Assembly: GCA_008363385.1 (NCBI GenBank) | Contig: RHKY01000031.1 | Span: 6,522-70,521, forward strand | DNA length: 64,000 nt | Direction of reading: 5' to 3' | From: Acidobacteriota bacterium | Lineage (GTDB): Bacteria > Acidobacteriota > Thermoanaerobaculia > UBA5066 | Shown: positions 11,498-57,050 of the stretch, one piece after another | Layout of the letters: every line of letters starts with the position of its first letter | Position numbering within the stretch: the stretch's first letter is position 1 | The notes under the pieces: generated by a model | Databases searched by the model: none | What the model was told of the DNA's origin: nothing | The model's input: the letters and a program-made list of their open reading frames with translations, nothing else | Program-made: the position numbers and the translations under genes

Positions 11498-11498
11498 C

Positions 11499-22126: not shown

Positions 22127-25100
22127 TCACGGGCGAGACGCTCCGACGTCCCGCAGCTGCCGATGCAGGATGCCCGCAGCGACCACGGGTGCGTAGCGGG
22201 ATTCGACCAGCGCTCGACCCCGCCCGCCAAGCCGGGTCCGGAGGCCGGCGTCCTTCAGGATACTGAGGACCGCCTCGCCCAGCGCAGGACCCTCGCCGTC
22301 GCACAGGAACCCCGTCTCACCCGCGAGGACGAACTCCTCCGGCCCCCCGCAGCGCGTGCTGACGACCGGAACCCCGCACGCCAGCGCCTCGAGGGCCGCT
22401 ATGCAGAGTCCCTCCTGCTCCGACGGGAGGACGAAGACGTCGAACGACTTCACGAGGCCCGGTAGGAGGTCCTCGGCTACCGCCGGGACCACGTGGACCA
22501 GGGACTCCAGTCCGAGCCGTCTCACTCGCGCGGCGGTCGAGGCTCGGAGCGGCCCGCCCACCAGCATGGCCGAGACCGAGGCTCCTGCCGCACGGCAATA
22601 CGCCAGCACGTCCACGAGGAGATCGACCCTCTTTCGCGGATCGTCGATCCGCCCGACGAATCCGATCCGCCCGTGCACCACGGCCGCCGGATCCGGTCGG
22701 AAGCGGATCGGGTCGACCGGAACCGGGAGGACGTTCCCGGGCACGGCGCCGCCGGCGAGCCGCGCGAGCCTCCCTCGCGTGTACTCGCTCAGAGGGAGGA
22801 CGGACCCCGCCTCCAGGATCTCTCTCTCGAGCCGCTCCACGAGGGGCCTGACCAGGATGGAATCGGCCGCCCGGCGCAGGGCCGAGAAGCCGAGCTCGCG
22901 GGAGCGGCGGTCGTCGCGCCACGGGGTGGCCACCCAGGCGACGAAGCGCCGCCCGCTATCCAGAAACGGCCGGGCCGCCAGACAGGTCCCAGAGGCCGCG
23001 AGGCATACGTCCGCCTCGTCGACCAACGCCGCCCAGGGCCTAGAGAGGCGATACTGGTTCGACTCGAGCTCCGGAAGCCAGGCGCCCAGCTCGTGGCCCT
23101 CGACGCCGTCGAACACCACGGTCAGCCTCGCGCCGACCGCTCCGATCCCGAGGCGGGTCGCCGTTGGCGAGAGGTAGGGATCCTCCGTGAAGGGCCGGTA
23201 CCAGGCGAGCACCGGCAAGTCGCCGGCGTCCCGGACTGTCTCCGTGGCGAACTTCGCCATCCTGGGAACGCCTCCCCCCCAGGACGGGGGAAGGGTGGAG
23301 ATCAGGACCCTCCTGGGGCGCCTGGGTCCCGGTGTCGGCACCGCCGAGGCCACGTCAGGCCGCGCCACCCGCCGTCTCTCGTCGAGTCCCAGCTCTGGCG
23401 CAAGCCGGTCCAGCACGAACCGGGCCCACCCTCGTAGCCCCCGGCCGGTATGGGCATCCCCCCGGCCTCGCACCCACTCGGCGACCGGCGGCGCGAAGCC
23501 CGTCTTCGCACGGGAGAGCACCGGCTCGGGTACGTCGGGCTCCACGGCCCGGGCCATCTCCGCCTTCGTCGGCGGGTCGGCGAGGCCAAGCGAAGCTGCG
23601 AGCCGGCGGGCAAGCTCAACGTCGACGAACGGGACGCGGATCTCGAGCGAGTGCGCCATTCCGGCCCAGTCGGCGTCCCGGAGGAGCTGGTTCCGCATGT
23701 ACCACGTCGACTCGAGCGCCGTGATACGAAGCCGGTCGGAGAGAAGGCCGGAGACCGTGCCCTCGAGGGCCGGCAGCGTGCCGAGGGCTTCCCATCCTTC
23801 CCGGACCAGGTCTGCGTCCAGGAACTCCGGCAGCTCCCACGGCATGAAGAGCCCTCGCCGCAGGAAGTACGCCCCTCCCAACGTCCCGCCGTACTCGAGA
23901 ACGCTCGCCCACTTCGGTGAGGCTGCACGGGAGGCCAGCGGAGCTACCACCCGTCGGAAGAGCCGTCCCGCGGCCGGGACCGCCGTGAACGGCGATAGCG
24001 CCCTGGCGGTACGCGGGACCTCGTAGAACGATGGATAGCCGCCGAACAGCTCGTCGCCCCCGAGTCCCGAGAGGGCTACTTTGAGGCCCAGCGACGCCGC
24101 CGCGCGGCTCACGAACCACGTGTTGACGCCGTCGATCGACGGCTGGTCCATCGCGGCAAGGATAGCGTCCAGGTCGTCGTCGAAGTCGCTCCGGGTGACC
24201 CGAACGGCCTCGTGCCGGATGCCGAGCGACGAAGCGACCTGCCGCGCGACCGGGACCTCGTCCATGGGCGTTCCTTCGTGTTCCGAGAAGCCCAGCGTGA
24301 CGGAGAGGACGTCGGCTCCGGCGTCCCGGCAGAGCCGCGCGATTGCCCTCGAGTCGAGACCCGCCGAGAGGAAGAGCCCGACCGGCACGTCCGACTCCAG
24401 GTGGTGCCGGACGCTGTCCAGGAGCGCCTCTCTCATGGGCGCGCGCTTAGCCTCGTCTCCGAGCCCGCCCCGCTGGCTCGCGACGAGGGCGTCCACGAGG
24501 TGAGCTACCCGTGCCCTTCGCGGCCCCGTGCCCTGCCGGTAGATCGCGACCTCTCCCGGAGCGAGGGCGCGAATCCCGCGGTGCAGGGTGAAGGGCTCCG
24601 GCACGTGGCCCCAGACGCAGAACCCCACCACGCCCGCAGGATCCGGAACGGCTTCCACCCCGCGCCCGGCGAGCAGGCCCCGGACCTGGGAGGCGGCACG
24701 CACGGTCTGTCCGTCGTCCGCCAGGTACAGCGGCTTGATCCCGTACGGGTCCCGCGCGAGGGCGAGCGATCGCTCGGCCTCGTCCCAGAGGGCGAGGGCG
24801 TACATCCCGCGGAGCCTTCCGAGCATGTCCGGGCCGTGCTCCGCGTAGAGGGCGAGGAGCACCTCGGTGTCCGTCCCCGTCCTGAAGACGTGGCCGCGTG
24901 ACTCGAGCTCCGCGCGCAGCGCCTTGAAGTTGTAGATCTCGCCGTTGAAGACGATCGTGAATCGACCCGTCGGGTCACGCATCGGCTGCGCGCCCCGGTC
25001 CGAAGGATCGAGGATGGCGAGGCGCCGGTGGCCCAGGGCCACGTCGCGGCGGTCGCTCTCCCAGTAGCCGTGACCGTCCGGTCCCCGGGCTGCCATCGCT

Positions 25101-25180
25101 TCCCGGATGCGCAGGGCCTCCTCCCTGTCGACGCGGGGCGCGTCAGGGTCGTAGGCGTGGATGGCGACGATTCCGCACAT
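22127..25180 (-). CDS. Fusion protein: asparagine-synthetase-family amidotransferase (N, ~610 aa) + GT4 glycosyltransferase (C, ~390 aa)
   Basis: Single 1017-aa frame. MCGIVAIH glutaminase nucleophile, SAGLDSR PP-loop, then a Pro/Arg linker and GT4 domain (RVLISTLPPSWGGGV ... EALACGVPVVSTRCGGPEEFV). Confidence 0.8.
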   Translation of the reverse strand: MCGIVAIHAYDPDAPRVDREEALRIREAMAARGPDGHGYWESDRRDVALGHRRLAILDPSDRGAQPMRDPTGRFTIVFNGEIYNFKALRAELESRGHVFRTGTDTEVLLALYAEHGPDMLGRLRGMYALALWDEAERSLALARDPYGIKPLYLADDGQTVRAASQVRGLLAGRGVEAVPDPAGVVGFCVWGHVPEPFTLHRGIRALAPGEVAIYRQGTGPRRARVAHLVDALVASQRGGLGDEAKRAPMREALLDSVRHHLESDVPVGLFLSAGLDSRAIARLCRDAGADVLSVTLGFSEHEGTPMDEVPVARQVASSLGIRHEAVRVTRSDFDDDLDAILAAMDQPSIDGVNTWFVSRAAASLGLKVALSGLGGDELFGGYPSFYEVPRTARALSPFTAVPAAGRLFRRVVAPLASRAASPKWASVLEYGGTLGGAYFLRRGLFMPWELPEFLDADLVREGWEALGTLPALEGTVSGLLSDRLRITALESTWYMRNQLLRDADWAGMAHSLEIRVPFVDVELARRLAASLGLADPPTKAEMARAVEPDVPEPVLSRAKTGFAPPVAEWVRGRGDAHTGRGLRGWARFVLDRLAPELGLDERRRVARPDVASAVPTPGPRRPRRVLISTLPPSWGGGVPRMAKFATETVRDAGDLPVLAWYRPFTEDPYLSPTATRLGIGAVGARLTVVFDGVEGHELGAWLPELESNQYRLSRPWAALVDEADVCLAASGTCLAARPFLDSGRRFVAWVATPWRDDRRSRELGFSALRRAADSILVRPLVERLEREILEAGSVLPLSEYTRGRLARLAGGAVPGNVLPVPVDPIRFRPDPAAVVHGRIGFVGRIDDPRKRVDLLVDVLAYCRAAGASVSAMLVGGPLRASTAARVRRLGLESLVHVVPAVAEDLLPGLVKSFDVFVLPSEQEGLCIAALEALACGVPVVSTRCGGPEEFVLAGETGFLCDGEGPALGEAVLSILKDAGLRTRLGGRGRALVESRYAPVVAAGILHRQLRDVGASRP

Positions 25181-25260
25181 TGCTTCAGGTCCCGAGGCGG
25201 CGCGCGGCTCGGCTGCCGGCGTGCGCCGTCGAGCGCGATCCGATGACTACCGCCGAGCCC

Positions 25261-27908: not shown

Positions 27909-29843
27909 TCACGCGGATGATGGAATATCCGTGGGATCGTGCCGCTCCGAGCCGAGCCGCAGCCCGGCACGCACCCGGACGTCGGCGCCGGTTCCGGCCG
28001 CCTCTGCCTCCCGCTCCGCGATATCCCCTTCGAACGAGACCCGGAAACGGAGGAAGGCGACGTCGAGCTCCTGGCACATCTCCTCGACCGCGGTGACTCT
28101 CTCGCCGGGGATCTTCGGCGACGTCACCACCAGGCCCCTGACGCCATGCGACTTGAAGAGGCGCGGCAGGTCTCCGAGGGTGCCGAGGACGGCCAGGCCG
28201 TTCAGGGTGCGGCCCACCTTCTCAGGGTCGTCATCGACGAATCCCGCAGGGTGGTAGAGCGCGTCCGCGCGGGCCCGCAGCTCCCGGAGGGCTGCGGAGC
28301 CGCGCCGTCCGGCTCCGTAGAGGAGGACGGGGATGCCGTGGTCGACGGTGCGGGCGCGCCAGTGGGCGAGGAGCCGGTACGAGGCTCGCGTGCCGTTCGT
28401 GAGGAGGAGCAGGAGGAGCGCGTAGACGAGGAAGAAGCTCGCCGGAGCTTCGGTGCGGCCCACGACGCCGTCGACGACCCCCGAAGCGAGAGCCGAGGCC
28501 GCGACCGCCGCCGACGGGCGAAGCAGGTCTTCCACGCTGGCATGGCGCCAGCGGCCACGGTAGAGGCCGAAGAGCCAGAATGTCAGGAAGGTGACGACGG
28601 GCAGGACCGCCGCCAGCTCGAGGAAGAGCGGGCGGTGCCGCACGAGCCCCCAGTCGTCCCACTTCAGGCCGATCGCGCCGTAGGCCGCAGCCACGACGAG
28701 CGACAGGTCGACGAAGACGACGAAGAAGCCCCTCTTCAGGACGGGCGTGTCGTACAGCCGGAGCATCGTGCCGCGCTTGAGGAAGGCCAGCTCCTCGTAT
28801 CCCAGCCGGCCGATCCCGACGGCCGCGGCGAAGAGGAGGGCCAGGAGGAAAAGGGCTGCGTCGCGCGAAGAGACGAAGAGCGAGGCGAAGCCGACGAGTC
28901 CCAGGAGAAGGCCCGTCCCGTGGAGGAGAAGCACCGCGCGCCGATGCGTGAGGCCCATCGCGAGGAGGCGGTGGTGTATGTGGCGCTTGTCCGCTTCCAT
29001 GATCCCGGACGGCGAGGTCGCATCCATGAGGCGGAGGGCTCGCCGGACGATCGAGAGGAGCGCATCCGCGAGCGGGACGCCCAGGATCACGACCGGGACG
29101 AGGACGGCGAGACCCGCCGAGAGGATCGCCCCCCCTTGCAGGCATAGGCACGCGAGGAGGAAGCCGACGGAGCAGGAGCCGCTATCGCCCAGGAAGATCG
29201 ACGCCGGATGGAGGTTGTACGGAAGGAAGCCGGCGAGGGCGCCCAGGAGGATGAGCGACCCCGTGGCGTACTCCCAGCGGCCCGCGAGGATGAAAACACC
29301 GGAAAGGCTGGCGGCGGAGATCAGGGCCAAGCCGGCCGAGAGCCCGTCGAGGCCGTCGATCAGGTTGAACGCGTTGGTGACGGCGACGATCCAGAGAATC
29401 GAGAGCGGGATCGCGAAGAGGCCCAGCTCGATCCCGTACCCGAAGACGTGCACGTGGCTGCCCAGCCGGATCCCAAGGGCGACTGCCGCGCTCGCGCCGA
29501 GTACGTGCGCGGCGAGCTTGACGAGCGCGCGCCGTGGGCGCACGTCGTCCCATACCGAGATCGCGAAGACGGGGAGAAGGCCGATTCCGATTGCGGCGAA
29601 GGTAGAGAGCTTCGGCGGCTTCGGGACCGGGAGGACGCCAAAGGTGACGAGGAGGGCAGTGGAAAGGAGGGCGCCGACGACGGCCACGCCGCCGAGGCGC
29701 GGGATCGGGCTCTTGTGGACTTTACGTTCGTCGGGGACGTCCACCGCGCCGATCGCCGCCGCCATCCGCTTGGCAAGCGGTGTCAAGGCCAGCGCGAGCG
29801 CCGCCGCGATCCCTGCAGGAAGGAGCAGGAGGAGGACCTTCAC
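27909..29843 (-). CDS. Polyprenyl-phosphate N-acetylhexosamine-1-phosphate transferase (WecA/MraY family) fused to C-terminal CoA-binding-like (PglF/WbpM N-terminal type) domain
   Basis: VTNAFNLIDGLDGL and IFLGDSGS MraY/WecA motifs in an 11-TM domain. C-terminal PVLLYGAGRRGSAALRE...GFVDDDPEKVG...GLAVLG. Start placed at GTG 29843 (VKVLLLLLPAGIAAAL). Track ORF start 29972 adds an Arg-rich leader. Confidence 0.65.
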   Translation of the reverse strand: MKVLLLLLPAGIAAALALALTPLAKRMAAAIGAVDVPDERKVHKSPIPRLGGVAVVGALLSTALLVTFGVLPVPKPPKLSTFAAIGIGLLPVFAISVWDDVRPRRALVKLAAHVLGASAAVALGIRLGSHVHVFGYGIELGLFAIPLSILWIVAVTNAFNLIDGLDGLSAGLALISAASLSGVFILAGRWEYATGSLILLGALAGFLPYNLHPASIFLGDSGSCSVGFLLACLCLQGGAILSAGLAVLVPVVILGVPLADALLSIVRRALRLMDATSPSGIMEADKRHIHHRLLAMGLTHRRAVLLLHGTGLLLGLVGFASLFVSSRDAALFLLALLFAAAVGIGRLGYEELAFLKRGTMLRLYDTPVLKRGFFVVFVDLSLVVAAAYGAIGLKWDDWGLVRHRPLFLELAAVLPVVTFLTFWLFGLYRGRWRHASVEDLLRPSAAVAASALASGVVDGVVGRTEAPASFFLVYALLLLLLTNGTRASYRLLAHWRARTVDHGIPVLLYGAGRRGSAALRELRARADALYHPAGFVDDDPEKVGRTLNGLAVLGTLGDLPRLFKSHGVRGLVVTSPKIPGERVTAVEEMCQELDVAFLRFRVSFEGDIAEREAEAAGTGADVRVRAGLRLGSERHDPTDIPSSA

Positions 29844-29895
29844 GATCGTGATCCGATCACGAGCGATTCGGGGGGATTGTCCGTAGGCAGCAAGG

Positions 29896-30909
29896 TTAGT
29901 CCCGCGGGACCGGGGACGCAAGCGCGGGAGGTGCCGGAGGCGGTTCCGCCGGCTGCGGGCTTGCGAGGGCATTCCAGGTGCGCCGGAGTCCTTCTGGCAA
30001 CTCGGTTGCCAGGACGACTCCGAGTACCACCTCGAGCAGCACCGCGGACGCCGAGGAATGCCGGATGTCCCCAGCGCGCGGTGGCAGGTGCTCGACCGCG
30101 GAGGCGGAACCGCTCACGTGGAGGATGGAGTTCGCGAGGACCCGAACGGTCGTCGAGGAGCTTCTGCCAGAGTTCAATGGTTGCCCGTAGGCTGCGGGTG
30201 GGGCCGAGGCTGCCGCGAGGATTACCCCGACGACGTCCGCGACGTACGTGAAGTCCCGCGCCTGCTCGCCGTCGCCGTATATGGTCAGCGGGCGGCCGTC
30301 GCGGGCGGCAGCGAGGAACTTCGGGATGACGGCGGCGTAGGGGCCTTCTGGGTTCTGCCGCGGCCCGTAGACGTTGAAGAAACGGAGGCTGACGACCGGG
30401 AGGCCGAAGACGCGCCAGTAGAGCTCGGCCAGCTCCTCGCCCATTCGCTTCGAGAGGGCGTACGGGGAGAGGGGGCGGCCCTCTTCCCCTTCGACCTTCG
30501 GAAGTTTCTCGCTGTCACCGTAGACGCTGGAGGAGGAGGCGAAGACGACGGACCTTACCGCCGCATCCCGGCATGCGGTGAAGACGTTCGCGGTGCCGCG
30601 GGCGTTCACGTCGAGAGTCGTGGCGGGGTCCTTCATCGACCGGGGGACCGAGCCGATCGCCGCGAGATGGAAGACGTGGGCGGCTCCGTCGATCGCGGCG
30701 CGGCAGGCGTCCAGGTCCCGGATGTCTCCCTCGACGAAGCGGATCCGATCCCGGACGCCGGCCAGGTTCTCCAGCGTGCCGGAGAAGAGGTTGTCGAGGA
30801 CGGTGACCTCTGCCCAGCGGGCAACGAGGGCATCGACGAGGTGCGAGCCGATGAAGCCAGCGCCGCCGGTGACGGTGACGCGCTTGCCGCGAAAGTCGGG
30901 CTCGATCAT
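29896..30909 (-). CDS. SDR-family NAD-dependent sugar epimerase/dehydratase
   Basis: VTGGAGFIGSH, YALSK catalytic pair. ATG 30909 overlaps TGA of the dehydrogenase gene (ATGA). 337 aa. Confidence 0.8.
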   Translation of the reverse strand: MIEPDFRGKRVTVTGGAGFIGSHLVDALVARWAEVTVLDNLFSGTLENLAGVRDRIRFVEGDIRDLDACRAAIDGAAHVFHLAAIGSVPRSMKDPATTLDVNARGTANVFTACRDAAVRSVVFASSSSVYGDSEKLPKVEGEEGRPLSPYALSKRMGEELAELYWRVFGLPVVSLRFFNVYGPRQNPEGPYAAVIPKFLAAARDGRPLTIYGDGEQARDFTYVADVVGVILAAASAPPAAYGQPLNSGRSSSTTVRVLANSILHVSGSASAVEHLPPRAGDIRHSSASAVLLEVVLGVVLATELPEGLRRTWNALASPQPAEPPPAPPALASPVPRD

Positions 30910-32936
30910 GCCTTGACGAGCATCCCGGGGAAGGCGTCGCGGGGGACGATGTTGCGACTGTCGACGACGAGCGACGCGAGCTGGTAGAGCGCTGGGTCCT
31001 TGAACTGCCTGTGGGCGGTGGAGACGACGACGGCGTCGTGACGGCCTAACTCTTCGGCGGTGCAGGCTGCCGACTCCATCACGAAGGCGTGCTTGCGGCC
31101 GCGATGGGAGCGGGGGATGTACGGGTCGCAGTAGGCGACCTCGGCCCCGAGCTCGTGGAAGAGCTCGAGGAGCTCGAAGGAGGGCGACTCGCGGTCGTCG
31201 TCGATGTCGGCCTTGTACGAGAGGCCGAGTACGAGCACCTTCGCGCCCTTGATGCTCTTGCCTTGCTGGTTGAGCGCCTTGACCGTCCGGTCGACGACGT
31301 ACTCGGGCATCCGGGTGTTCACCTCGCCCGCGAGCTCGATGAACCGCGCCCAGACGCCGTGCTCCGCGGCCTTCCACGTGAGGTAGAAGGGGTCGAGCGG
31401 AATGCAGTTGTGCACGAAGACGCCGCCGGTGGCGGCGAAGGTGTGGGATCCGGGCACCTCGACCGAGAAGACGGGCTCGCTCCCCTCTTCGAGGCGGACG
31501 TCGAGGACCGGGACCACCGAGGCGCCCTTCCAGGGGATCGTGCGGCGGGGCGCGGTGACGCCCCGACGGCTCTCCGCGAGCCGATCGAGCTTCCGCTGCT
31601 TCTCGCCGCCCAGGAGGCGCGCCAGTCGCTGCAGGCTGGCCGTCCCGGGAATGCGAATCTGCGGCTGCTCGAGCCGGCGGATCGGTGCGGAGCCCGGGTC
31701 CTGGGGCAGGCCTTCGTCTGCGGCGAGTGCGGGCGCTGCCTCCTCAACCCCTCCGTGGACCGGGACGAGGTCGCCCGCCTTCAGGTCCTGCGCCTTCCGG
31801 ACGACGAGCTCGTCGTCTTCCAGGACCAGCATCGGGTGCCGGTCCGTGGTCCGGAGGATCCGGCCACCGGCCAGGCGGACGGTGGCGATCGGCCCTTCGT
31901 ACGGGCGCCGGAACAGGAACGAGACCGGCTTCCACGCCTCCTGGCCCGTCTGAGGGTCGATCGAAAGGGCTTCGAGTCCCGTCGGAAGGAGCGCCTGCCC
32001 GTCCGGCAAGTCGAGCCGCGTGTCGCTGGCCTGGCGCGACTCGAAGAGATCAGCCAGGCGCACGACCGTGTTGGACGAGCCGTCACGCACGCGGACCGAC
32101 TCCGTCCCTGCCAGGCAGTGTCCGCCCAAACCGGGACCCGGGTAGAAGGGCATGAAGCCGAAAGGCTTGGTCTTCGCGGCCTCGATGACCTCCCAGACGT
32201 CGATCCCCATCCGGTCGAAGACGACCTTCAGCTCGTTGACGAGGGCGATGTTGACGGACCGGAAGACGTTCTCGAGGAGCTTGGCCGACTCGGCGACCTC
32301 GGGGCTGCCGACGGGGACGACGCGGTCCACCGCGGCGCCGTAGAGGGCGCAGGCGGCCCGCTGCGAGGGCTCGTCGATGCCGCCGACGACCTTCGGGATG
32401 TTCTGCGTGTGGAAGCTGGGGTTGCCGGGGTCCTCGCGCTCGGGAGAGAAGGCGAGGAAGAAGTCCGTCCCGCAGGCGAGGCCCGTGGCCGCGAAGCGCG
32501 GCAGGAGCTCCTCGCGGGTCGTCCCGGGGTAGGTCGTCGACTCCAGGACGACGAGCTGTCCCCTGCGCAGGCGCCGGGCGATCTCGTCGGCGGTCTTCTG
32601 GATGTACGACATGTCCGGCTCGCGGTGCCGGCCGAGCGGGGTCGGGACGCAGACGATGACCGCGTCGCACTCCGGGAGGCGGTCGAAGTCGGTCGTGGCC
32701 GCGATCCGGCCCCGGGCGAACGCCGCTGCCACCCGCTCCGCCCCGATGTGCTTGATGTACGACTCGCCGCGGTGGAGCGCCTCGGGCTTCTTCGCGTCGA
32801 CGTCGAAGCCGACGACAGAAAAGCCGGACTCCTCGAAGAGGAGGGCGAGCGGAAGGCCGACGTACCCGAGGCCGATGACGCCGACCCGGGCGGTGCGGTT
32901 CTGGATGCTGTCGAGGAGGTGGTCGAGGGTATTCAT
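30906..32936 (-). CDS. UDP-sugar 6-dehydrogenase (UDP-glucose/UDP-ManNAc dehydrogenase family) interrupted by an intein
   Basis: RVGVIGLGYVGLPLAL NAD motif. Catalytic region GPGLGGH|C...|CIPLDPFYL split by a 237-aa insert. Host protein is about 439 aa without the insert. Confidence 0.8.
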   Translation of the reverse strand: MNTLDHLLDSIQNRTARVGVIGLGYVGLPLALLFEESGFSVVGFDVDAKKPEALHRGESYIKHIGAERVAAAFARGRIAATTDFDRLPECDAVIVCVPTPLGRHREPDMSYIQKTADEIARRLRRGQLVVLESTTYPGTTREELLPRFAATGLACGTDFFLAFSPEREDPGNPSFHTQNIPKVVGGIDEPSQRAACALYGAAVDRVVPVGSPEVAESAKLLENVFRSVNIALVNELKVVFDRMGIDVWEVIEAAKTKPFGFMPFYPGPGLGGHCLAGTESVRVRDGSSNTVVRLADLFESRQASDTRLDLPDGQALLPTGLEALSIDPQTGQEAWKPVSFLFRRPYEGPIATVRLAGGRILRTTDRHPMLVLEDDELVVRKAQDLKAGDLVPVHGGVEEAAPALAADEGLPQDPGSAPIRRLEQPQIRIPGTASLQRLARLLGGEKQRKLDRLAESRRGVTAPRRTIPWKGASVVPVLDVRLEEGSEPVFSVEVPGSHTFAATGGVFVHNCIPLDPFYLTWKAAEHGVWARFIELAGEVNTRMPEYVVDRTVKALNQQGKSIKGAKVLVLGLSYKADIDDDRESPSFELLELFHELGAEVAYCDPYIPRSHRGRKHAFVMESAACTAEELGRHDAVVVSTAHRQFKDPALYQLASLVVDSRNIVPRDAFPGMLVKA
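31407..32117 (-). mobile_element. Mini-intein (237 aa, no LAGLIDADG endonuclease) inserted at catalytic Cys of UDP-sugar dehydrogenase
   Basis: Block A CLAGTESVRV (Cys1). Block B TTDRH (TxxH). Blocks F/G VFSVEVPGSHTFAATGGVFVHN followed by +1 Cys (CIPLDP). Splice junctions verified against nucleotides (tgc at 32117..32115; aac-tgc at 31409..31404). Confidence 0.75.
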
Positions 32937-32965
32937 GCTTTTCTGTTGCGAGAGCGGCGCGGAGA

Positions 32966-33319
32966 CTATGGCGACTCGGGTGTCGGCGCCGGCGGTGACA
33001 GTGGCTCGAGGACAGCCACCAGCGGCGGGATGTCCTCGCGGACCGTCTTCCACACGCCCTCGAGGTCGACGGAGTCGTACCCGTGGATCAGGATGTCGCG
33101 GGAGCCCGCGATCCGGCGCCAGGGAACCTCGGGGTGGGCTTCTCGGTATTCGGCAGAAAGTCGCTTCACGGCTTCCCCGAGCACGAGCAGCTGGTGCAGA
33201 ACCGCGGACTGGGTCTTCTCGTCCGCCTTGAACGAAGGCAGGTCGAGCTCACCCAGGAAGGCCGCAGCGTTGCGGGCCGCGCGAAGCGCGTCGAGGACGG
33301 ACGCTTCATCGCGCTGCAT
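32966..33319 (-). CDS. hepT: HepT-like HEPN toxin (DUF86)
   Basis: R-x4-HxY motif (RDILIHGY). Downstream partner of the MNT gene. Confidence 0.75.
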
Positions 33320-33665
33320 AGAGGGGCTCGGCCGTCGACAGGATCTCGTTCCGGCGGATCCAGTTGGGGCTGCTCTCCACGGCCGAACGGACGAGCAGGT
33401 CGACCGGCCGACCGAAGAGCTCGGAGAGCTCGTCACGCATCTGCCCTTGATCCAGGAGGGACCAGATCGTGTCGGCCTGAGGCGTGAGAAGGAGGTCCAC
33501 GTCGCTGTCGGGCCCGAAACTCGCGCGCAGGACGGATCCGAAGGCCGCGAGCTCGGCCACTCGCCACCTCTCGCAGAACGCTGCGAGCGTCGCCGGATCC
33601 ACCGAGATCGACAGGCTCATCGAGGGCATTCTATCGACGGCGCTCGCCGCGAGCCTTCGGGTCAT
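33306..33665 (-). CDS. mntA: MntA-like minimal nucleotidyltransferase antitoxin
   Basis: [20 protein letters not shown]-x(n)-DxD Pol-beta NTase motif. Overlaps hepT start. Confidence 0.75.
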
Positions 33666-33695
33666 CGACCCAGGGGACGCCGAGGAGGGCCGCCT

Positions 33696-33983
33696 TCAGG
33701 TGCCCGCCTCCGCCTCACGGACCATCTCGGGCGTGATCGCGGGTGCGTCCTCGGGGACGTCGAACACCGGAAAGCCGCCCCGTTCCCGGACCTCACCCGA
33801 GGCCGTTGGACCGCCTCGCGCGGGGGCGGCGAGGCCCTCGTCGGCCAGCGCCTGTTCGAACTCGGGATCGAGCTTGGCGCATTCCTCTCCCAGGCGTCGG
33901 TGCCTACGCCGCGATCTGCTCGTACGAGAACTCCGGGATCCCTCTCGATCCAGGCCTGGGAGGCTACGGCGGACCTTCTTCAT
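33696..33983 (-). CDS. Hypothetical small protein upstream of mntA/hepT
   Basis: 95-aa ORF with Arg-rich N-term. Only positional support. Confidence 0.25.
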   Translation of the reverse strand: MKKVRRSLPGLDREGSRSSRTSRSRRRHRRLGEECAKLDPEFEQALADEGLAAPARGGPTASGEVRERGGFPVFDVPEDAPAITPEMVREAEAGT

Positions 33984-34149
33984 CGTCTTCGCGTTCGACA
34001 GGATCCAGGGGGGCCAGAGCAGCCCCTCGTGCCGTGTTCGTCGGCGGCGATTCGCACCCGATCAGGCGACCCTGGCTTCCACGTACTCGGCCCGGGTGGC
34101 GGGCACGTCCTCGCTGCGTCTGGACGAGGCCGGCGCCGACGAGCCGAGG

Positions 34150-34542
34150 TCACCCTCGGCCGAGGTCCCCCGCCCGGCGCGCGGCCTTCCGCATCAAGGC
34201 GAGGTACGCCGGGAGGCGCGAGTAGACCTCTTCGGCCATCGCGGCCTTGTAGAGGTGGCTGGTCCTGTTGCGGTCCTCCAGCATCTGGAAGACGACGTCG
34301 TCGCCTTCGTCCAGGAGCCCGATCTGAAACGCAGCCCGGAAGGCCTCCCGTGGGGAAAAGAGCCGCAGGCCCTCCGCCTCCGAGCGCACCTTCAGAGTCT
34401 TCCAGAGAAGCTCGAACGAGAACTCGAAGCGCTGGATGGCTGCGTCCCGGACGATGTCGGACTTCGGCTCCCGCAGCGCCTCGTCGAGCCTGGCCAGCGC
34501 CGACTCGAGGTCCGACAGGAGCGATTCAAGCGGCGCGGTCAT
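34150..34542 (-). CDS. HI0074-type nucleotidyltransferase substrate-binding (HEPN) protein
   Basis: IQRFEFSFELLWKTLK...NRTSHLY pattern of NTase_sub_bind family. Follows cognate NTase. Confidence 0.7.
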   Translation of the reverse strand: MTAPLESLLSDLESALARLDEALREPKSDIVRDAAIQRFEFSFELLWKTLKVRSEAEGLRLFSPREAFRAAFQIGLLDEGDDVVFQMLEDRNRTSHLYKAAMAEEVYSRLPAYLALMRKAARRAGDLGRG

Positions 34543-34846
34543 GCAGGGGCACCACGTCTCGAAGGGCGATCTCGCGGAACTGCGCGTCGACCTGCCGGAA
34601 GTCGACGACGTCCACTCGGGCCAGGATCGGGGCCGCGTCGAGGAGGTCGCGGAGGTCCGCCATGTCCCGGGCGTCGAGCGGGCGGCCCGCGTCCACCCCG
34701 ATGTCGTAGTCCGAACGGACGTCGGCAGAGCCCCGGGCCCGCGACCCGAAGAGGAAGACGCGCAGGGGACGGTATCCGGAGAGCGGTCCGGCTACGGCAG
34801 CATCGACCGCCTCCAGCAGCACTTCGGGTAGATCGGTTCGCGTCAT
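34526..34846 (-). CDS. HI0073-type nucleotidyltransferase
   Basis: LFGSRARGSADVRSDYDIGV NTase motif. 106 aa. Confidence 0.75.
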   Translation of the reverse strand: MTRTDLPEVLLEAVDAAVAGPLSGYRPLRVFLFGSRARGSADVRSDYDIGVDAGRPLDARDMADLRDLLDAAPILARVDVVDFRQVDAQFREIALRDVVPLHDRAA

Positions 34847-34998
34847 CGCGTTGTCAGCTCACCCTGGACTTCGGTCAGGCCCGCGGCGCGGTCAGGCCGC
34901 GAGGCACGGGAGGCGGCTCAGGTTCCCAGCCGGCCTTCTCGAAGGCCTTCGCCGCGGATCTCCCGGAGATGTTGCCGAACCGCGACACGAATCCGCCT

Positions 34999-35214
34999 TC
35001 AGACGGCCACGACGATGGGCGTACCCTGCGAGTCGGAGCTGCGCGCCGACAGGGCCTTCTGATCTTCGGCCCAGAGCCAGGCCCGAATCGCCTCCTGGAT
35101 GTTCTCGAGCGCCTCCTTCTCGTCCTTCCCCTGGGAGACGCATCCCGGCAAGGCAGGACACTCCACCACGAACCAACCTTCCTCGTCCTTCTCCAGAGTC
35201 ACGTGAAACAACAC
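34999..35214 (-). CDS. HicB-like antitoxin (UPF0150 family)
   Basis: HVTLEKDEEGWFVVECPALPGCVSQGKDEKEALENIQEAI, the HicB N-domain. GTG start. Confidence 0.6.
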   Translation of the reverse strand: MLFHVTLEKDEEGWFVVECPALPGCVSQGKDEKEALENIQEAIRAWLWAEDQKALSARSSDSQGTPIVVAV

Positions 35215-35235
35215 GGTCCTGCCTCCGATCGAATC

Positions 35236-35331
35236 CTACGCTCCCACACCGAGGTCCCGGGTCTCGACGACGTCGCCGGCCCGGAACTCGATGTAGAGGG
35301 TGTCGGTCTCGACGAAGTACTCGACCTTCAC
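35236..35331 (-). pseudogene. Truncated DUF2283-like ORF (31 codons)
   Basis: My translation: VKVEYFVETDTLYIEFRAGDVVETRDLGVGA*, matching the N-half of DUF2283 proteins (MKIEYDKEADALYI...). GTG overlaps TGA of the HEPN gene (GTGA). Normal length is about 65-75 aa. Confidence 0.3.
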
Positions 35332-35750
35332 GGCTTGCCGCCTTCCAGCAGGCTCGTCGCCAGGTCCACGGCCTGTCGCGCGATCGAGACGGCGTCCTCG
35401 GCGTCATCGCGTCCGAACAACTCCCACGGCGTGCGCCAGGTCCCCTCGTCTCCGTAGTCGGATGCGACGTGCACGGCTGCTCCCAGCCGCTCGGCGAGGG
35501 TTGCCAGCTTGTCGAGGGCGCTCTGGCTCGCGGTGGCCGTCGATTCGGCAGCGAGCTGCCGCAGCAGGCTCCCGGGGGCATGAGTCCTTCCGACCGGTCC
35601 GGCATTGGCGAGGACCGCCTTCGCGGCGTTCTCCGTCGCGAGCTCGCTGGTGTCGACGCACGAACGCCAACGGCCCAGATCGATGTCCTGGGTGGCCTCG
35701 CCCAGGTACCCCTTCGCCAGCTTGATCCGGTAGGCGACTTCCTCGTTCAC
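35328..35750 (-). CDS. HEPN domain protein (partner of upstream MNT)
   Basis: C-terminal 140 aa of track ORF. HEPN-like helical protein. GTG 35750 overlaps TGA of MNT gene (GTGA). Confidence 0.6.
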   Translation of the reverse strand: MNEEVAYRIKLAKGYLGEATQDIDLGRWRSCVDTSELATENAAKAVLANAGPVGRTHAPGSLLRQLAAESTATASQSALDKLATLAERLGAAVHVASDYGDEGTWRTPWELFGRDDAEDAVSIARQAVDLATSLLEGGKP

Positions 35751-36223
35751 CGCTTCGCTCCATCCAGAGCAATGGGCTGCGCGTCCGCCGACCTCGGCCT
35801 GACCCTCCAGACTTCGCCGTCGGGCGTGCGGACCCGGAAGAGGCCGCGAGCGAACATCCTGGCCCGCAAGGCTTCGAGTCGCCGGCTGGCGTGCCCCTCG
35901 GGGTCGAAGAGGACGTCCCCGTCGAGGGCGATGTCGAAGAGGAGCGACGACTCGTGCCTCTCCAGCTCGTCCAGCGTCCACACGATCGGCGAGACCATCC
36001 CCCGCCACGACTCGGGCAGGCTCATGACCAGCTCCACGACCTCGCGCACTGGACGCTCATGCCGGGCCCGGATCACGACGAGAAGGTCCCAGTCGCTCCC
36101 AGGCTCGGCCTCGCTCCGCGCTCTCGAGCCGAACGAGACGATGGCGACGAGGCGGCCGGCGAGCGAGCGCCGGAACGCCGCGACCAGCTCCTCACGCGAC
36201 GGGCAGAGCGATTGGAGGTTCAC
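35747..36223 (-). CDS. Minimal nucleotidyltransferase (MNT) domain protein
   Basis: VSFGSRARSEAEPGSDWDLLVV Pol-beta NTase motif. 158 aa. Confidence 0.75.
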   Translation of the reverse strand: MNLQSLCPSREELVAAFRRSLAGRLVAIVSFGSRARSEAEPGSDWDLLVVIRARHERPVREVVELVMSLPESWRGMVSPIVWTLDELERHESSLLFDIALDGDVLFDPEGHASRRLEALRARMFARGLFRVRTPDGEVWRVRPRSADAQPIALDGAKR

Positions 36224-36275
36224 TGACTTCGGGGCCTTCTCTTCGCGAGCTCGGAAGGATGCCTGAGCGACTGTC

Positions 36276-36329
36276 TCACGGCGCCTGGACGAGGCCGGCG
36301 CCGACGTCGGTGGCCAGGAGCGGGAGGCG
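36276..36329. repeat. Direct repeat copy B: duplicated 3' end of the S8 protease gene (50/54 identical to 36885..36938)
   Basis: tcacggcgcctggacgaggccggcgccgacgtcggtGGCCaggagcgggaggcg. On the minus strand it encodes RLPLLATDVGAGLVQAP*, identical to the protease C-terminus, with only synonymous differences. Confidence 0.85.
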
Positions 36330-36331
36330 GC

Positions 36332-38442: not shown

Positions 38443-38961
38443 TCAGGTCCCACGGACACCTCCTGACCACGCGGCCCAACGCTCGGCGAGCCCGAACCTC
38501 TCGAGAATCGAAGCGAGCCGGCGCGCATCCACCTCCGCTTCCTCGAGCAGCTGTTGCGCCCGGACACGGTCCTTCGACCGCCCCGTCTGAACAGCAATGG
38601 CGAGAAGGTACTCCACCCGGACGACCCTCGTCGGAGTCCCTCCAACCGTGTGCGGCTGCGCGTTGCGCGCGGCCTCCAGCACCAGGGAGTTGTACGCCGG
38701 AAGGAGCTGCACCGGGATGCCATGAAGAACGACGTGCTCGCCCTGCGGGACTCCGCCGCGACTCTTCAGGAATGCCAGCTGCGGCTCCATCGTGACGACG
38801 GCAGCGTTCGCCTGGCTCTCGGATAGAACGACGAAGACGTCGAGGTCGTGCGTCGCGACCGGTTCAGCGTAGAAGAGCGCGGCCACAGCGCCCCCGATCG
38901 CGTACGTCTCGACGAGACCCGCCTCGACGAGCTCGTTCAGGACTTCGAGAACGGCTTCCAT
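38443..38961 (-). CDS. Pol-beta-superfamily nucleotidyltransferase-like protein (AbiEii/DUF2204-like)
   Basis: From M38 of track ORF: YAIGGAVAALFYAEPVATHDLDVFVV (G[GS]-x(n)-DxD). 172 aa. Paralog of the next gene. Confidence 0.5.
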   Translation of the reverse strand: MEAVLEVLNELVEAGLVETYAIGGAVAALFYAEPVATHDLDVFVVLSESQANAAVVTMEPQLAFLKSRGGVPQGEHVVLHGIPVQLLPAYNSLVLEAARNAQPHTVGGTPTRVVRVEYLLAIAVQTGRSKDRVRAQQLLEEAEVDARRLASILERFGLAERWAAWSGGVRGT

Positions 38962-38971
38962 CGTGATTCGT

Positions 38972-39538
38972 TCAGGCTCGCTGCTCGCCCGGCGGGAGGA
39001 TCTTCTCGAGGAGGTGAGTGACGCCGGCGCTGGCTGCCTCGCGCCGGATGTAGGCGAGGTCGATGGCCTCACCGCAGCCAGCGAGGACGGAGGCCGCGTC
39101 TCGGAGCTGGCGCTCGGATCCGGAGAGGGCGGCCCACTTGAGCTTCGAGACGATGGAGCCCTCCGGGGAGATGACGTAGACGTCGACGTCGAACAGGCGC
39201 GCCCCCCTCCGCCTCGCGAGCTCGCCGCGCTCGAAAGGCCGATCGGGGCACACGATCAAGTCCGCCTTCCATCCGGACTCGAGGTGGATGACATTGAGCA
39301 TCCCCCGGGTCCTCAGGGCCTCGGCGGCCTCGTCCCGGCTGACGTAGAAGCCCTCCTTCAGCTCGTCCAGCAGACGGCTCAGCTGCGCTGGCCGCGGGTC
39401 GAAGACGACGTCGACGTCCTGGGTGGCTCGTGGCTCGCCGTAGAAGGCGGAGGCGGTGGAGCCAGTGATCATCCAGGGTATCCCCGCGGCATTCAGGGCA
39501 GCCGCGAGCCGGACGAGGATGTCGCGTGGAGAGGTCAT
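38972..39538 (-). CDS. Pol-beta-superfamily nucleotidyltransferase-like protein (AbiEii-like), paralog
   Basis: From M73 of track ORF: ITGSTASAFYGEPRATQDVDVVFDP. ...SIVSKLKWAALSGSERQLRDAASVL resembles the AbiEii C-region. ATG overlaps stop of upstream small ORF. Confidence 0.5.
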   Translation of the reverse strand: MTSPRDILVRLAAALNAAGIPWMITGSTASAFYGEPRATQDVDVVFDPRPAQLSRLLDELKEGFYVSRDEAAEALRTRGMLNVIHLESGWKADLIVCPDRPFERGELARRRGARLFDVDVYVISPEGSIVSKLKWAALSGSERQLRDAASVLAGCGEAIDLAYIRREAASAGVTHLLEKILPPGEQRA

Positions 39539-39813
39539 CGGCTCGAGCCCGCGGCGCCTGTGAAGCGATCCGCCAGTGCGTCGCCGTAGATGCGCCGGAA
39601 GAGCTCTGTGCGAAGCCGGAAGTCGTCGTACTCCGGGTGACGCATCCGGATGCCCGCGAGGACGGCCTCGCGGGCGAGCTCCGACGCCGCGAAGGCTGCC
39701 TCGACACGCCCCTCCGGGCCGAGCCGGGCGTGGATCTCCCGGACCTTTCTCCAAGCCGCCTCCGAAGTGTCGAGGGGGCGAGAGAAGGGATGGGGATGTT
39801 CTGGCGAGGTCAC
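39535..39813 (-). CDS. Hypothetical 92-aa protein, first gene of NTase-paralog operon
   Basis: ORF with balanced composition. Positional coupling to downstream NTase gene. Confidence 0.35.
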   Translation of the reverse strand: MTSPEHPHPFSRPLDTSEAAWRKVREIHARLGPEGRVEAAFAASELAREAVLAGIRMRHPEYDDFRLRTELFRRIYGDALADRFTGAAGSSR

Positions 39814-39871
39814 CGGTAGATGGAGGCTCGATGGCCTACGCGGAACCTGTAGGTACCGAGCGCCGGCTGAG

Positions 39872-40123
39872 TCAGATGCTCGGCGCTCCGAAGAGCCTCT
39901 CGTGGGAATGCTTCTTTCCGGCTGCGTACTGGGCGCGGGCCTCGCGAATGCCCGCGAGATAGCGCGGGGAAGACGCCGCGAGGAGCTCCTCGAGGAACAC
40001 CTCTCGGTCTGCCTTCTTCATCCGCTGAACGGCGGAGATGATCACGGCCGGGCTCAGGTCCATCCGAACTGTCACCGGGGCCGTCCGGTCGCCGACGGAG
40101 GTCGTCTCTCGCTTCATGGTCAT
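39872..40123 (-). CDS. Hypothetical small protein (RHH/ParD-like antitoxin candidate)
   Basis: 83 aa. ...REVFLEELLAASSPRYLAGIREARAQYAAGK weakly resembles ParD-type antitoxins. Follows relE. Confidence 0.3.
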   Translation of the reverse strand: MTMKRETTSVGDRTAPVTVRMDLSPAVIISAVQRMKKADREVFLEELLAASSPRYLAGIREARAQYAAGKKHSHERLFGAPSI

Positions 40124-40174
40124 GCGCGTTCTATCCGGGGTCCGCTCCGCTCCCGCGTTTACGGCTCTTCCGGA

Positions 40175-40453
40175 TCAGCGCCCCAGGAGGCGCGCCACCC
40201 TCGCGTAGACGTCGCGGCGATGGCCGACCGTGACCACGACGACTGTGACCTTCTCTCCCTGGACCTGGTAGACGATCCGCCAGTCGCCGGTGCGCCAGGA
40301 GCGGAGGCCTTTGAGCTCGAAATGGAGCGGCTTTCCGAGAGTCGGGTCGGACGCGAGCTCGAGGACCGCTCTCCGGACTCTCTCGCGGACCGCAGGGTCG
40401 AGCTTCCGGATCGCGTCTCGGGCCGAGTGGGTGTAGACGACCGTCCAGGTCAA
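40175..40453 (-). CDS. relE: RelE/ParE-family toxin
   Basis: MTWTVVYTHSARDAIRKLDPAVRERVRRAVLELASDP...LRSWRTGDWRIVYQV typical RelE/ParE. ATGA overlap with antitoxin gene. Confidence 0.8.
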   Translation of the reverse strand: MTWTVVYTHSARDAIRKLDPAVRERVRRAVLELASDPTLGKPLHFELKGLRSWRTGDWRIVYQVQGEKVTVVVVTVGHRRDVYARVARLLGR

Positions 40454-40704
40454 CCCCAGACCTCGTCTTGACCGACGACGCGCCCCTCACGGAGGTCCTT
40501 CAGGCCCGAGCGGATTCGCTTCATCAACCGCGGGTCGGAAAGGATCTCCAGGGTCTCCAGGAGCCCCTCGTACTCGTCGACGGAAACCAGCACACCCGCC
40601 GGGTGCCCCGACCGGGTGATGACGAGTGGCTCGCCGAGGTCTTCAACTCGCGCCAGCAGCCCAGCCAGGTGGGCCTTCGCTTCGGAGAGAGGGACCTGCT
40701 TCAT
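40450..40704 (-). CDS. yefM: Phd/YefM-family antitoxin
   Basis: MKQVPLSEAKAHLAGLLARVEDLGEPLVITRSGHPAGVLVSVDEYEGLLETLE canonical YefM. Confidence 0.8.
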   Translation of the reverse strand: MKQVPLSEAKAHLAGLLARVEDLGEPLVITRSGHPAGVLVSVDEYEGLLETLEILSDPRLMKRIRSGLKDLREGRVVGQDEVWG

Positions 40705-46241: not shown

Positions 46242-46670
46242 CTAAGTTAGATCAAGGGATTCGACCACCGTCGCCGCGAAGCGCTCGAGGTCGCCGATGT
46301 TCTTCTCGACGATGGCGCGGACGACGGCGGGGTCGAGGGTGGTGTAGTCGTGGACCGCGACGTTCCGGAAACCGACCACGGAGCGCATGGCGACGAGGAG
46401 TTCGCCGGACAGGGCGCCGCGGTTCGCGAGGATCTCGAAGGCGTTCCGCGCGTCGCGCGGGACCTCCCAGCCGTTCTCGGCGATCAGGTGGTTCGCCAGG
46501 TCGATGCAGGCCTCGGCCGCCCGCTGGAGGTTGAGGACGGCGAGGTCCTGCCGCATCCACTCCTTGTCGGGCTGCGGCACGAGGGCCGGCAGGTCGCGGA
46601 TCGTCCCGGTGGCCTTCCGGATGGTGGAGGCCTTCGCCAGGACGACGTCGCGGTCGGCCTTCAACGGCAC
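46242..46670 (-). CDS. hepT: HepT-like HEPN toxin (DUF86)
   Basis: R-x4-HxY motif RNVAVHDY. 142 aa. Confidence 0.75.
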   Translation of the reverse strand: MPLKADRDVVLAKASTIRKATGTIRDLPALVPQPDKEWMRQDLAVLNLQRAAEACIDLANHLIAENGWEVPRDARNAFEILANRGALSGELLVAMRSVVGFRNVAVHDYTTLDPAVVRAIVEKNIGDLERFAATVVESLDLT

Positions 46671-47074
46671 GTGCGGGCCCAGGCGGCCATCGCCTGCTCC
46701 ACGGGGCGGCGCTGGATCTTCACGTCGAAGTAGAGGGCGGGCGTGTACATCCGGAACTCGGCGAGCGCCCGGGCGTCCTCCACGAGGACCGGCACGCCGT
46801 GCTCGAGGACCTGCATCCTCACGATCGCGTCTCCGCGGCGGAGGTCGAGGAGGTCGACGGTGCGGTGGAGGTGCCGCTCGAGGCGCTGCGAGATCTCGAG
46901 CCGCTCGTCCGGCGAGAGGGCGCGATCGGCCCAGAGGGCGACGTCGACGTCGCTCTCGGGGCCGAGCCTCCCCGCCGCGGCCGAGCCGTGGACGTACGCG
47001 AAGCGGACCCCGACCGGGGCGTCCTGGAGGACGTCGCGGACGGCGGCGGCGATGTCTGGGTCGAGGGCGGTCAA
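46661..47074 (-). CDS. mntA: MntA-like nucleotidyltransferase antitoxin
   Basis: YVHGSAAAGRLGPESDVDVAL NTase motif. Confidence 0.75.
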   Translation of the reverse strand: MTALDPDIAAAVRDVLQDAPVGVRFAYVHGSAAAGRLGPESDVDVALWADRALSPDERLEISQRLERHLHRTVDLLDLRRGDAIVRMQVLEHGVPVLVEDARALAEFRMYTPALYFDVKIQRRPVEQAMAAWARTCR

Positions 47075-47081
47075 GGACGCG

Positions 47082-47330
47082 TCAGGAGACCGGGGAGCCC
47101 GGGGGGCCGATCGAGACGTCGCGCGCGAGGTCGACGGCCTCGACGCCGTCGAGGTCCGTGAGGCGGCCGACGACGTCCCCCGGCGCGCGGCCGGTGATCG
47201 TGCCGACCGACTCGAGGACGCCGTCCACCGTCATCCCGGCAGCCCGCAGGCGGCCGGCGACCTCGTGGAGGCGATCGCCGTGGAGCTCATCGACGGTGAC
47301 GACGACGGGGACGAGGCTGGTCGCGGTCAT
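47082..47330 (-). CDS. Hypothetical 82-aa protein (first gene of mntA-hepT operon)
   Basis: Strong RBS GGAGGTGA 4 nt before ATG. Its RBS plus first 29 codons are duplicated 602 bp upstream. Confidence 0.4.
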   Translation of the reverse strand: MTATSLVPVVVTVDELHGDRLHEVAGRLRAAGMTVDGVLESVGTITGRAPGDVVGRLTDLDGVEAVDLARDVSIGPPGSPVS

Positions 47331-47340
47331 CGCTCACCTC
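47242..47340. repeat. 99-bp perfect direct repeat, copy 1 (identical to 47844..47942)
   Basis: gcccgcaggcggccggcgacctcgtggaggcgatcgccgtggagctcatcgacggtgacgacgacggggacgaggctggtcgcggtcatcgctcacctc read at both loci. Confidence 0.9.
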
Positions 47341-47840: not shown

Positions 47841-47843
47841 GAT

Positions 47844-54773: not shown

Positions 54774-54788
54774 GCCTCCGGGAACCGG

Positions 54789-57046: not shown

Positions 57047-57050
57047 GCCC

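Follow-up and report, generated by a model that had tools for sequence, protein, structure and literature searches.

A 64,000-nucleotide stretch of DNA from an Acidobacteriota bacterium (assembly GCA_008363385.1, contig RHKY01000031.1, forward-strand positions 6,522 to 70,521; here named the window, at its full length) encodes a nucleotide-sugar dehydrogenase whose reading frame is interrupted by 237 codons directly before the presumed catalytic cysteine, which raises the question of what this insert is, whether it can be removed from the protein, and whether its removal regulates the polysaccharide pathway to which the enzyme belongs. An initial annotation of the locus had described the insert as a mini-intein and had proposed that its splicing acts as a post-translational gate on glycan synthesis. 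Judged by its sequence and predicted structure, the insert is most probably a class-1 intein that is competent for cis-splicing and devoid of an endonuclease, and a decaying selfish element rather than a regulator.

The dehydrogenase gene and its insert

The gene is contained in a minus-strand open reading frame at 30906..33053 (715 residues in the numbering of that frame), in which the ATG at 32936, and not the start of the frame, is the sensible start of the precursor because the upstream HepT-like toxin gene stops at 32966. The same 676-residue product was called independently on the Logan contig L001, which was assembled from another sample and shows 0 differences to the window DNA, while a contig assembled from a third sample (L082) carries a variant that is 97-98% identical to the window. 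As the same DNA was recovered from independent assemblies, the insert is no assembly artefact. A long plus-strand open reading frame overlapping the gene (31089..34709) was rejected as a high-GC artefact, as it failed the filter on GC content by codon position that was passed by the minus-strand gene (third-position GC of 0.87).

The insert corresponds to precursor residues 274-510 (313-549 in the 715-residue numbering) and to window positions 31407..32117, where it interrupts the sequence FYPGPGLGGH / CLAGTE...GGVFVHN / CIPLDPFY, which confirms the boundaries that had been read initially (GPGLGGH/C...VHN/CIPLDP). The parts of the precursor are as follows, with support from Pfam and NCBIfam models, alignment to structures in the PDB, and the predicted local distance difference test (pLDDT) of a structure model.

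30906..32936, minus strand: intein-containing nucleotide-sugar dehydrogenase precursor gene (676 residues plus stop)
32118..32936, minus strand: N-extein, residues 1-273 (NAD-binding domain and first part of the central domain), ending in FYPGPGLGGH; PF03721, PF00984, alignment to PDB 4r16 and 3ojl
31746..32117, minus strand: N-terminal splicing region of the intein, intein residues 1-124, with Cys1 at 32115-32117 and block B TDRH (intein 91-94) at 31836-31847; TIGR01445, pLDDT >90, beta-rich
31539..31745, minus strand: linker and remnant of the deleted homing-endonuclease insert, intein residues 125-193, very basic; alignment to the full-length relative L002, pLDDT profile
31407..31538, minus strand: C-terminal splicing region of the intein, intein residues 194-237 (blocks F and G), with His236-Asn237 at 31407-31412; TIGR01443, pLDDT >90
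30909..31406, minus strand: C-extein, residues 511-676 (remaining central domain and UDP-binding domain); PF00984, PF03720
31404..31406, minus strand: +1 Cys, predicted splicing nucleophile and, once spliced, catalytic thiol; alignment to PDB 4r16 and Cap5O 3ojl

When the insert is deleted in silico, the remaining 439 residues match TIGR03026 in a single stretch (profile 2-410 of 413, 418.8 bits, cut-off 189.8), whereas this match is broken into two stretches when the insert is present. The comparison that had been proposed as a check of the initial annotation, in which the host protein is aligned without residues 313-549, is therefore favourable to it, since the family match becomes contiguous and both 4r16, the best PDB match of the spliced sequence (E 1e-66), and Cap5O (3ojl) can be aligned from end to end. 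In both alignments the +1 Cys coincides with the Cys of the GGHC(L/I)PxDP motif, which we take to be the catalytic nucleophile established for the uridine diphosphate (UDP)-glucose dehydrogenase family, and this bears out the earlier view that a nucleotide-sugar dehydrogenase of a polysaccharide locus is interrupted directly before its catalytic Cys. The precursor has a predicted mass of 73.8 kDa, and splicing would yield an enzyme of 48.2 kDa and a free intein of 25.6 kDa, in agreement with earlier estimates of ~48 and ~26 kDa for these products, and the predicted spliced-junction peptide is ...GPGLGGHCIPLDPFYLTWK.

The host enzyme is best explained, from its sequence, as a UDP-N-acetylhexosamine-type 6-dehydrogenase (TviB/WbpO/WecC-like), the likely product of which would be a UDP-N-acetylhexosamine uronic acid, possibly amidated. 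Close orthologues carry the JGI label 'UDP-N-acetyl-D-glucosamine dehydrogenase'. The spliced enzyme is below the cut-offs of all NCBIfam equivalog models that were scored (WecC NF008286, 239 vs 459; archaeal UDP-ManNAc dehydrogenase NF040825, 269 vs 750; TviB NF011729, 228 vs 592), and the substrate assignment was therefore left without a specific name.

Splicing motifs and predicted fold of the intein

Three intein models were passed by the insert, being Pfam Intein_splicing (53.4 bits against a curated cut-off of 35.8, E 3e-14), TIGR01445 for the intein N-terminus (36.1 against 24.5) and TIGR01443 for the intein C-terminus (20.4 against 15.6), so that the identity deduced earlier from Cys1, the TxxH of block B and the terminal HN with its +1 Cys is upheld. 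The class-1 residues are all in place (C1, T91-x-x-H94, H236-N237 and the +1 C), and Cys1 is the sole Cys within the intein. In an alignment of 14 relatives (A1), residues T91, D92, H94, P95, V216, S218, E220, T226, G232, H236 and N237 are invariant, and C1 is nearly so.

Block F of class-1 inteins usually contains an acidic residue, typically an Asp at position F:4. In the window intein this block (residues 216-223, window 31443-31466) reads VFSVEV, the Ser218 of which aligns with the Asp of VYDLQV in the Pab CDC21-1 intein (6rpp). This is not specific to the window, as the family-wide form is VYSxEV, with an invariant Ser and, two residues on, the invariant Glu220; it may perhaps represent a variant catalytic arrangement that is common to all inteins at this site.

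An AlphaFold2 model of the intein, built on a 14-sequence alignment, has a mean pLDDT of 83, with values >90 and a beta-rich structure at residues 1-124 and 194-237. Residues 125-152 have a pLDDT <50 and are predicted to be disordered, whereas residues 159-168 and 171-185 each form a helix in the model (pLDDT about 76-78 over residues 159-185). The predicted fold is that of a HINT domain: among the 50 matches listed when the model was compared with the PDB by Foldseek, all are inteins or HINT domains, the best being the Pho RadA, Mvu TFIIB, PolII and CDC21-1 mini-inteins (E down to 8e-13), with a target-normalised TM-score of up to 0.87 against those of Pho RadA and PolII. The structurally characterised mini-inteins (Pho RadA 4e2t; Mvu TFIIB 5o9i; Pab/Pho CDC21-1 6rpp/6rpq; PolII 2lcj and 7oec) thus have the HINT fold in common with the window intein (Foldseek E 1e-12 to 1e-9, TM-score 0.8-0.87), and their sequence matches to it reach E 1e-9, yet at an identity of just 14-17%. 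In contrast to them, the window intein holds an extra ~70 residues, in part disordered and in part helical, between its splicing halves.

Loss of the homing endonuclease

Comparison of the insert with Pfam and NCBIfam gave no match to LAGLIDADG, HNH or any further endonuclease family, even at E<=1, in keeping with the initial annotation. The origin of the extra residues can be assessed by comparison with the closest full-length relative, a 482-residue LAGLIDADG intein in the orthologous gene of the Acidobacteriota metagenome-assembled genome (MAG) MFD02134.bin.2.200 (CAVUAN010000005.1; L002), the extein of which is 76% identical to that of the window. The two inteins align in two blocks, window residues 1-133 with L002 residues 1-133 (56% identity) and window residues 123-237 with L002 residues 367-482 (59% identity), the second of which includes the segment SLQRLARLLGGEK that is identical in both. 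L002 keeps both LAGLIDADG motifs (positions 233 and 334), and both fall in the gap of the window sequence. Both motifs are also retained in P0001, a protein of an Acidobacteriota MAG that matches the window intein with E 3.5e-48.

Compared with L002, ~250 internal residues are gone from the window intein, which from about residue 137 aligns with L002 residues 382-482. What has been retained is a remnant of ~55-70 residues from a region that in full-length relatives comes after the LAGLIDADG core, and residues 142-205 (window 31503-31694) have an isoelectric point of about 12. By these alignments the window intein is an endonuclease-deletion derivative with a basic, predicted helical remnant, and not a minimal intein; the term mini-intein therefore holds as regards the absence of an endonuclease and fails as regards a minimal form.

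Other short inteins at the same site suggest that this loss is not unique. In the genome set described below, 16 of them keep differing portions of the L002 frame, so that about ten retention patterns can be told apart, and one form of 329 residues is intermediate between the short and the full-length inteins. These varied patterns indicate that the endonuclease was lost repeatedly at this site, with several bacterial copies having lost it independently. Every stage of endonuclease decay being represented at a single site, this constitutes a convenient natural series for the study of the intein life cycle.

Distribution of the udp allele

Inteins have long been listed for UDP-glucose dehydrogenase (PMC2874743), in which 10 inteins, from Euryarchaeota only, were counted in one survey (PMC4760082). 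A halobacterial 'udp' allele has been described together with related inteins in Methanococci, Methanocaldococcus and relatives, and in 2014 the same work contained bacterial udp entries for Dictyoglomus thermophilum and a Fervidibacteria bacterium (PMC4071816). The window intein shares with this archaeal udp/UDP-GD allele the host enzyme family, the site right before the catalytic Cys and the class-1 residues, and it is related in sequence (E about 1e-11) to the intein of P0025, which with P0161 forms a protein cluster of the archaeon Haloplanus salinus that is interrupted at the same site (GGS/C...HN/CFPKD). It differs in its host organism, an Acidobacteriota bacterium, in the deletion of its endonuclease, and in the subfamily of its host enzyme, which is GGH/C-IPxDP (UDP-GlcNAc/ManNAc-type) as opposed to the GGS/C-FPKD UDP-glucose 6-dehydrogenase subfamily of the Haloplanus-type host. 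By site and sequence, then, the window intein belongs to the known udp/UDP-GD allele, and its kind is not new.

An exhaustive HMMER scan of 1.84 billion representatives gave 191 matches at E<=1e-3; among the top 150, at least 45 nucleotide-sugar dehydrogenases carry an intein exactly at GG[HS]/C...HN/C. These inteins occur in forms of about 165-265 and about 440-490 residues, and most of the longer forms in the GGH/C subfamily match LAGLIDADG-like motifs (GYYLSEG...LLRGDG). A word-indexed protein search with the intein alone returned no match at E<=1e-3. Peptide patterns derived from the window intein alone did not retrieve any relative among the contigs of species-representative genomes, which means that these representatives do not include the genome of the window, or at least not this allele.

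As the inteins in alignment A1 diverge too far for a search pattern to be derived from them, a junction-spanning alignment (A2) was used instead, and the resulting pattern VHN/CIP[LIV]DP was searched in one genome per GTDB species, giving 87 matches, all of which were confirmed. Among the 80 matches listed, all are bacterial: about 42 are from Acidobacteriota (Pyrinomonadaceae, Blastocatellia, Thermoanaerobaculia and others), 13 from Chloroflexota, six from Planctomycetota (including the isolate Singulisphaera sp. Ch08) and two from cyanobacteria (Oscillatoria, Laspinema), with further ones from Bipolaricaulota, Omnitrophota, Thermotoga, Clostridia and others. For the 76 loci with both junctions, the intein measures 463-493 residues in 58, 167-214 residues in 17 and 329 residues in one. 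The initial remark that inteins at this site are known from archaea is thus correct, while a confinement to archaea is contradicted by the 87 bacterial species genomes and by the bacterial entries cited above. The udp allele is widespread in Bacteria, especially in Acidobacteriota, Chloroflexota and Planctomycetota; with surveys holding archaeal and two bacterial cases, its bacterial breadth appears to be under-reported in the literature.

In GenBank, exact or near-exact fragments of the precursor are present in unclassified Acidobacteriota MAGs, named Acidobacteria bacterium ACD and ACB2, as a 308-residue 'hypothetical protein' and a 356-residue 'partial' dehydrogenase (KAA0253222.1, MCE7956312.1, MDL1948377.1, MCE7956602.1). 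The 308-residue record begins at an internal Met inside the intein and the 356-residue record ends inside it; the ACB2 assembly appears to break near intein residues 83-96. These fragments should read 'intein-containing nucleotide-sugar dehydrogenase'.

Strain alleles, selection and recombination

Three alleles of the locus were recovered, namely that of the window (identical to L001, intein-plus), that of L082 (intein-plus), and that of the contigs L083-L085 (intein-free), which derive from three samples (Logan SRR28483934/35/39). The intein-free allele encodes P0175, a protein of 439 residues which lacks the intein to the exact codon (junction GGHCIPLDP) and is 96% identical to the spliced extein of the window, and its context matches that of the intein-plus strain, with the upstream HicB/MNT/HEPN/HepT genes and the start of the downstream epimerase. 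Over five codons on each side of the insertion point, its empty site and the joined flanks of the window intein differ by 6 synonymous changes.

Between the window and L082 the intein differs by 11 synonymous and two non-synonymous changes, giving a ratio of non-synonymous to synonymous changes per site (pN/pS) of 0.07 that rests on these 13 substitutions only, as compared with 0.09 for the N-extein and 0.15 for the C-extein. As its pN/pS is comparable to that of the exteins, the intein is constrained like the enzyme.

L082 and the intein-free L083 show 0 differences over 3,000 nucleotides upstream and over coding nucleotides 1-779, followed by nine synonymous differences in nucleotides 780-831 (in spliced coordinates, in which the insertion lies at 819/820) and by ~7% divergence through the C-extein, whereas there are no differences between the window and L082 from nucleotide 775 to 848. 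The end of identity at nucleotide 779 thus places a recombination breakpoint about 40, and at most about 45, nucleotides upstream of the insertion site, and this event is compatible with intein gain and with intein loss alike. Co-conversion of the homing type is not claimed, as the flanking extein DNA does not cluster by intein presence: the flanks of the window and L082 are no nearer to the intein-plus L002 than to the intein-free alleles, with 12-15 differences in 78 nucleotides throughout. More broadly, 119 of the 120 closest clusters of extein homologues are without an intein.

All four Logan contigs (L082-L085) end 61 nucleotides past the dehydrogenase stop, within the start of the epimerase gene (window about 30845). 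The three C-extein haplotypes diverge from one another by 6.6-8.2%, against 99-100% identity in the region upstream, which suggests that the dehydrogenase gene marks the left boundary of a strain-variable glycan locus with frequent recombination. Intein-plus and intein-minus alleles that show no difference in the 3.8 kb preceding the breakpoint can serve as a clean natural control for any physiological cost or regulation attached to an intein at a catalytic Cys. Taken alone, the present finding amounts to routine annotation; its most useful by-products are this natural allele pair and the decay series described above.

Proposed splicing pathway and alternative explanations

The following pathway is inferred from established intein chemistry. 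The 73.8-kDa precursor would be translated, upon which Cys1 would undergo an N-S acyl shift aided by Thr91 and His94 of block B; the +1 Cys would attack the thioester so as to generate a branched intermediate; Asn237, aided by His236, would cyclise and free the 25.6-kDa intein; and an S-N shift would join the exteins into the 48.2-kDa enzyme, in which the +1 Cys would then act as catalytic thiol. With its central domain and active site interrupted, the precursor must be inactive before splicing, and the intein must excise for the dehydrogenase to function because the +1 nucleophile is the catalytic thiol. The ancestral element was probably a LAGLIDADG intein of roughly 480 residues similar to that of L002, from which an internal deletion of ~250 residues would have taken out the endonuclease. 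Splicing ability would have been kept by selection since the intein occupies an essential site, and the element would persist or disappear only via homologous recombination with intein-free alleles.

Several points weigh against this account: splicing activity is deduced from sequence and a predicted structure, the catalytic details may depart from those of textbook class-1 inteins given the Ser218/Glu220 arrangement of block F, the pN/pS value of the intein depends on few substitutions, and the host enzyme bears no specific substrate name. It must also be weighed against conditional splicing, in which the intein would be a sensor that releases active dehydrogenase under certain conditions (for instance when a disulfide between Cys1 and the +1 Cys is opened by reducing conditions, or when no thiol-reactive metals or oxidants are present) and thereby gates the supply of uronic acid to the glycan pathway. 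Such a role would draw on the necessary inactivity of a precursor whose catalytic Cys is the +1 residue, on the closeness of Cys1 to the +1 Cys at the active site of the fold, where a disulfide is chemically possible, and on the precedents of the Msm DnaB (PMC6195587) and Pho RadA (PMC5238726) inteins. These resemble the window intein in that they are located at a critical host site and that host activity depends on their splicing, but their response to stress or substrate was shown by experiment, whereas at the window locus there is no sign of conditionality and a natural intein-free allele exists. The purifying selection acting on the intein would also suit a sensor, though it is to be expected of any intein at an essential site. 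Given that in a sister strain the same locus holds an intein-free allele of 96% identity and that nearly all close orthologues are intein-free, the gate is dispensable, while the sporadic occurrence of the intein across phyla, at sizes of 167-493 residues, follows the mobile-element pattern of invasion, decay and loss. The gate suggested in the initial annotation thus obtained no support and was weakened by these intein-free alleles, and conditional splicing is considered unlikely.

It is highly improbable that the insert is splicing-dead, which would leave an inactivated dehydrogenase, effectively a pseudogene, with its activity supplied from elsewhere in the genome. The loss of the endonuclease does show that the element is decaying, and the GenBank MAG records hold the gene just as 'hypothetical protein' or 'partial' fragments; the latter are, however, explained by broken contigs and by the choice of an internal Met as start. 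Against a dead insert, the reading frame is unbroken in three independent assemblies, every splicing residue is conserved, pN/pS is about 0.07 for the intein and 0.09-0.15 for the exteins, and the gene appears to be translationally coupled to the downstream epimerase. That the insert is instead a structural insertion peculiar to this lineage, or a bacterial intein-like (BIL) domain kept in the mature enzyme, is scarcely credible, as it is found at a canonical intein-type site with a terminal HN and a +1 Cys, passes both the N- and the C-terminal intein models, has relatives with LAGLIDADG endonucleases at the same site, and would, by splitting GGH/C with 237 residues, wreck an active site that in close homologues is free of the insert to the exact codon. 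BIL domains are HINT domains that occur in variable or non-conserved proteins and as a rule lack a +1 nucleophile; the present insert interrupts the best-conserved motif of an enzyme of housekeeping type and is followed by a +1 Cys, and assignment to this class was rejected.

An extension of the favoured reading, that of a decaying class-1 intein, is regarded as doubtful: despite being endonuclease-less, the intein might still be moving in the present-day Acidobacteriota population, either mobilised in trans by the LAGLIDADG endonucleases of full-length relatives which share its target site or by plain homologous recombination at the edge of the strain-variable glycan locus, and/or its splicing might be conditional on thiol or redox state. 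If the redox-conditional part were true, intein-plus and intein-minus strains would differ in the stress response of their polysaccharide precursor supply.

Genomic context of the dehydrogenase gene

A large polysaccharide cluster on the minus strand begins with the dehydrogenase gene; in it the start of the next gene, encoding an epimerase, overlaps the dehydrogenase stop by four nucleotides (ATGA), an arrangement from which translational coupling of the two genes is predicted. The principal genes of the region are:

29896..30909, minus strand: TviC/WbpP-like NAD-dependent sugar epimerase, downstream of the dehydrogenase; PF01370, best NCBIfam match TviC at 197.6 bits, below cut-off
27909-29972, minus strand: WecA/MraY-type phosphoglycosyl transferase of glycosyltransferase family 4 (GT4), fused to a C-terminal CoA_binding_3 domain
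22127-25246, minus strand: fusion of ~1039 residues between a glutamine-dependent asparagine-synthase-like amidotransferase (AsnB) and a C-terminal GT1 glycosyltransferase
9647-11572: second, stand-alone AsnB-like gene; best NCBIfam match XrtA/PEP-CTERM amidotransferase

The CoA_binding_3 domain normally forms the N-terminal part of polyprenyl glycosylphosphotransferases for exopolysaccharide synthesis. Also present in the cluster are a GMC oxidoreductase, an ABC-2 permease with its ATPase, a DegT aminotransferase, methyltransferases, GT2 and GT1 glycosyltransferases, and a Wzy_C-like protein. The same kinds of epimerase or AsnB genes come after the intein-free orthologues of the dehydrogenase. 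In these an AsnB gene often follows directly (L086, L088), which hints at uronamide formation.

Upstream of the dehydrogenase are several HepT/MNT, HEPN/MNT and HicB toxin-antitoxin modules, and toxin-antitoxin-like genes are densely arrayed both alongside the glycan region and inside it (window 32966-36331, 38443-40486 and 46661-47888), including:

32966-33665: HepT and MNT
34150-34858: NTase_sub_bind (HEPN-like) protein and Polbeta nucleotidyltransferase
35747-36331, 46661-47230 and 47472-47888: further MNT-like nucleotidyltransferases
40175-40486: ParE toxin

Towards the other end of the window, a gene on the minus strand (59649-63998) encodes a very large sigma-54 activator (>1449 residues; AAA_16, TPR, GAF, AAA+ and HTH_8 domains) that runs off the window, adjoined by the following pentose-phosphate genes:

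57986-59209: transaldolase
55541-57097: glucose-6-phosphate dehydrogenase (G6PD)
53775-54788: glucokinase

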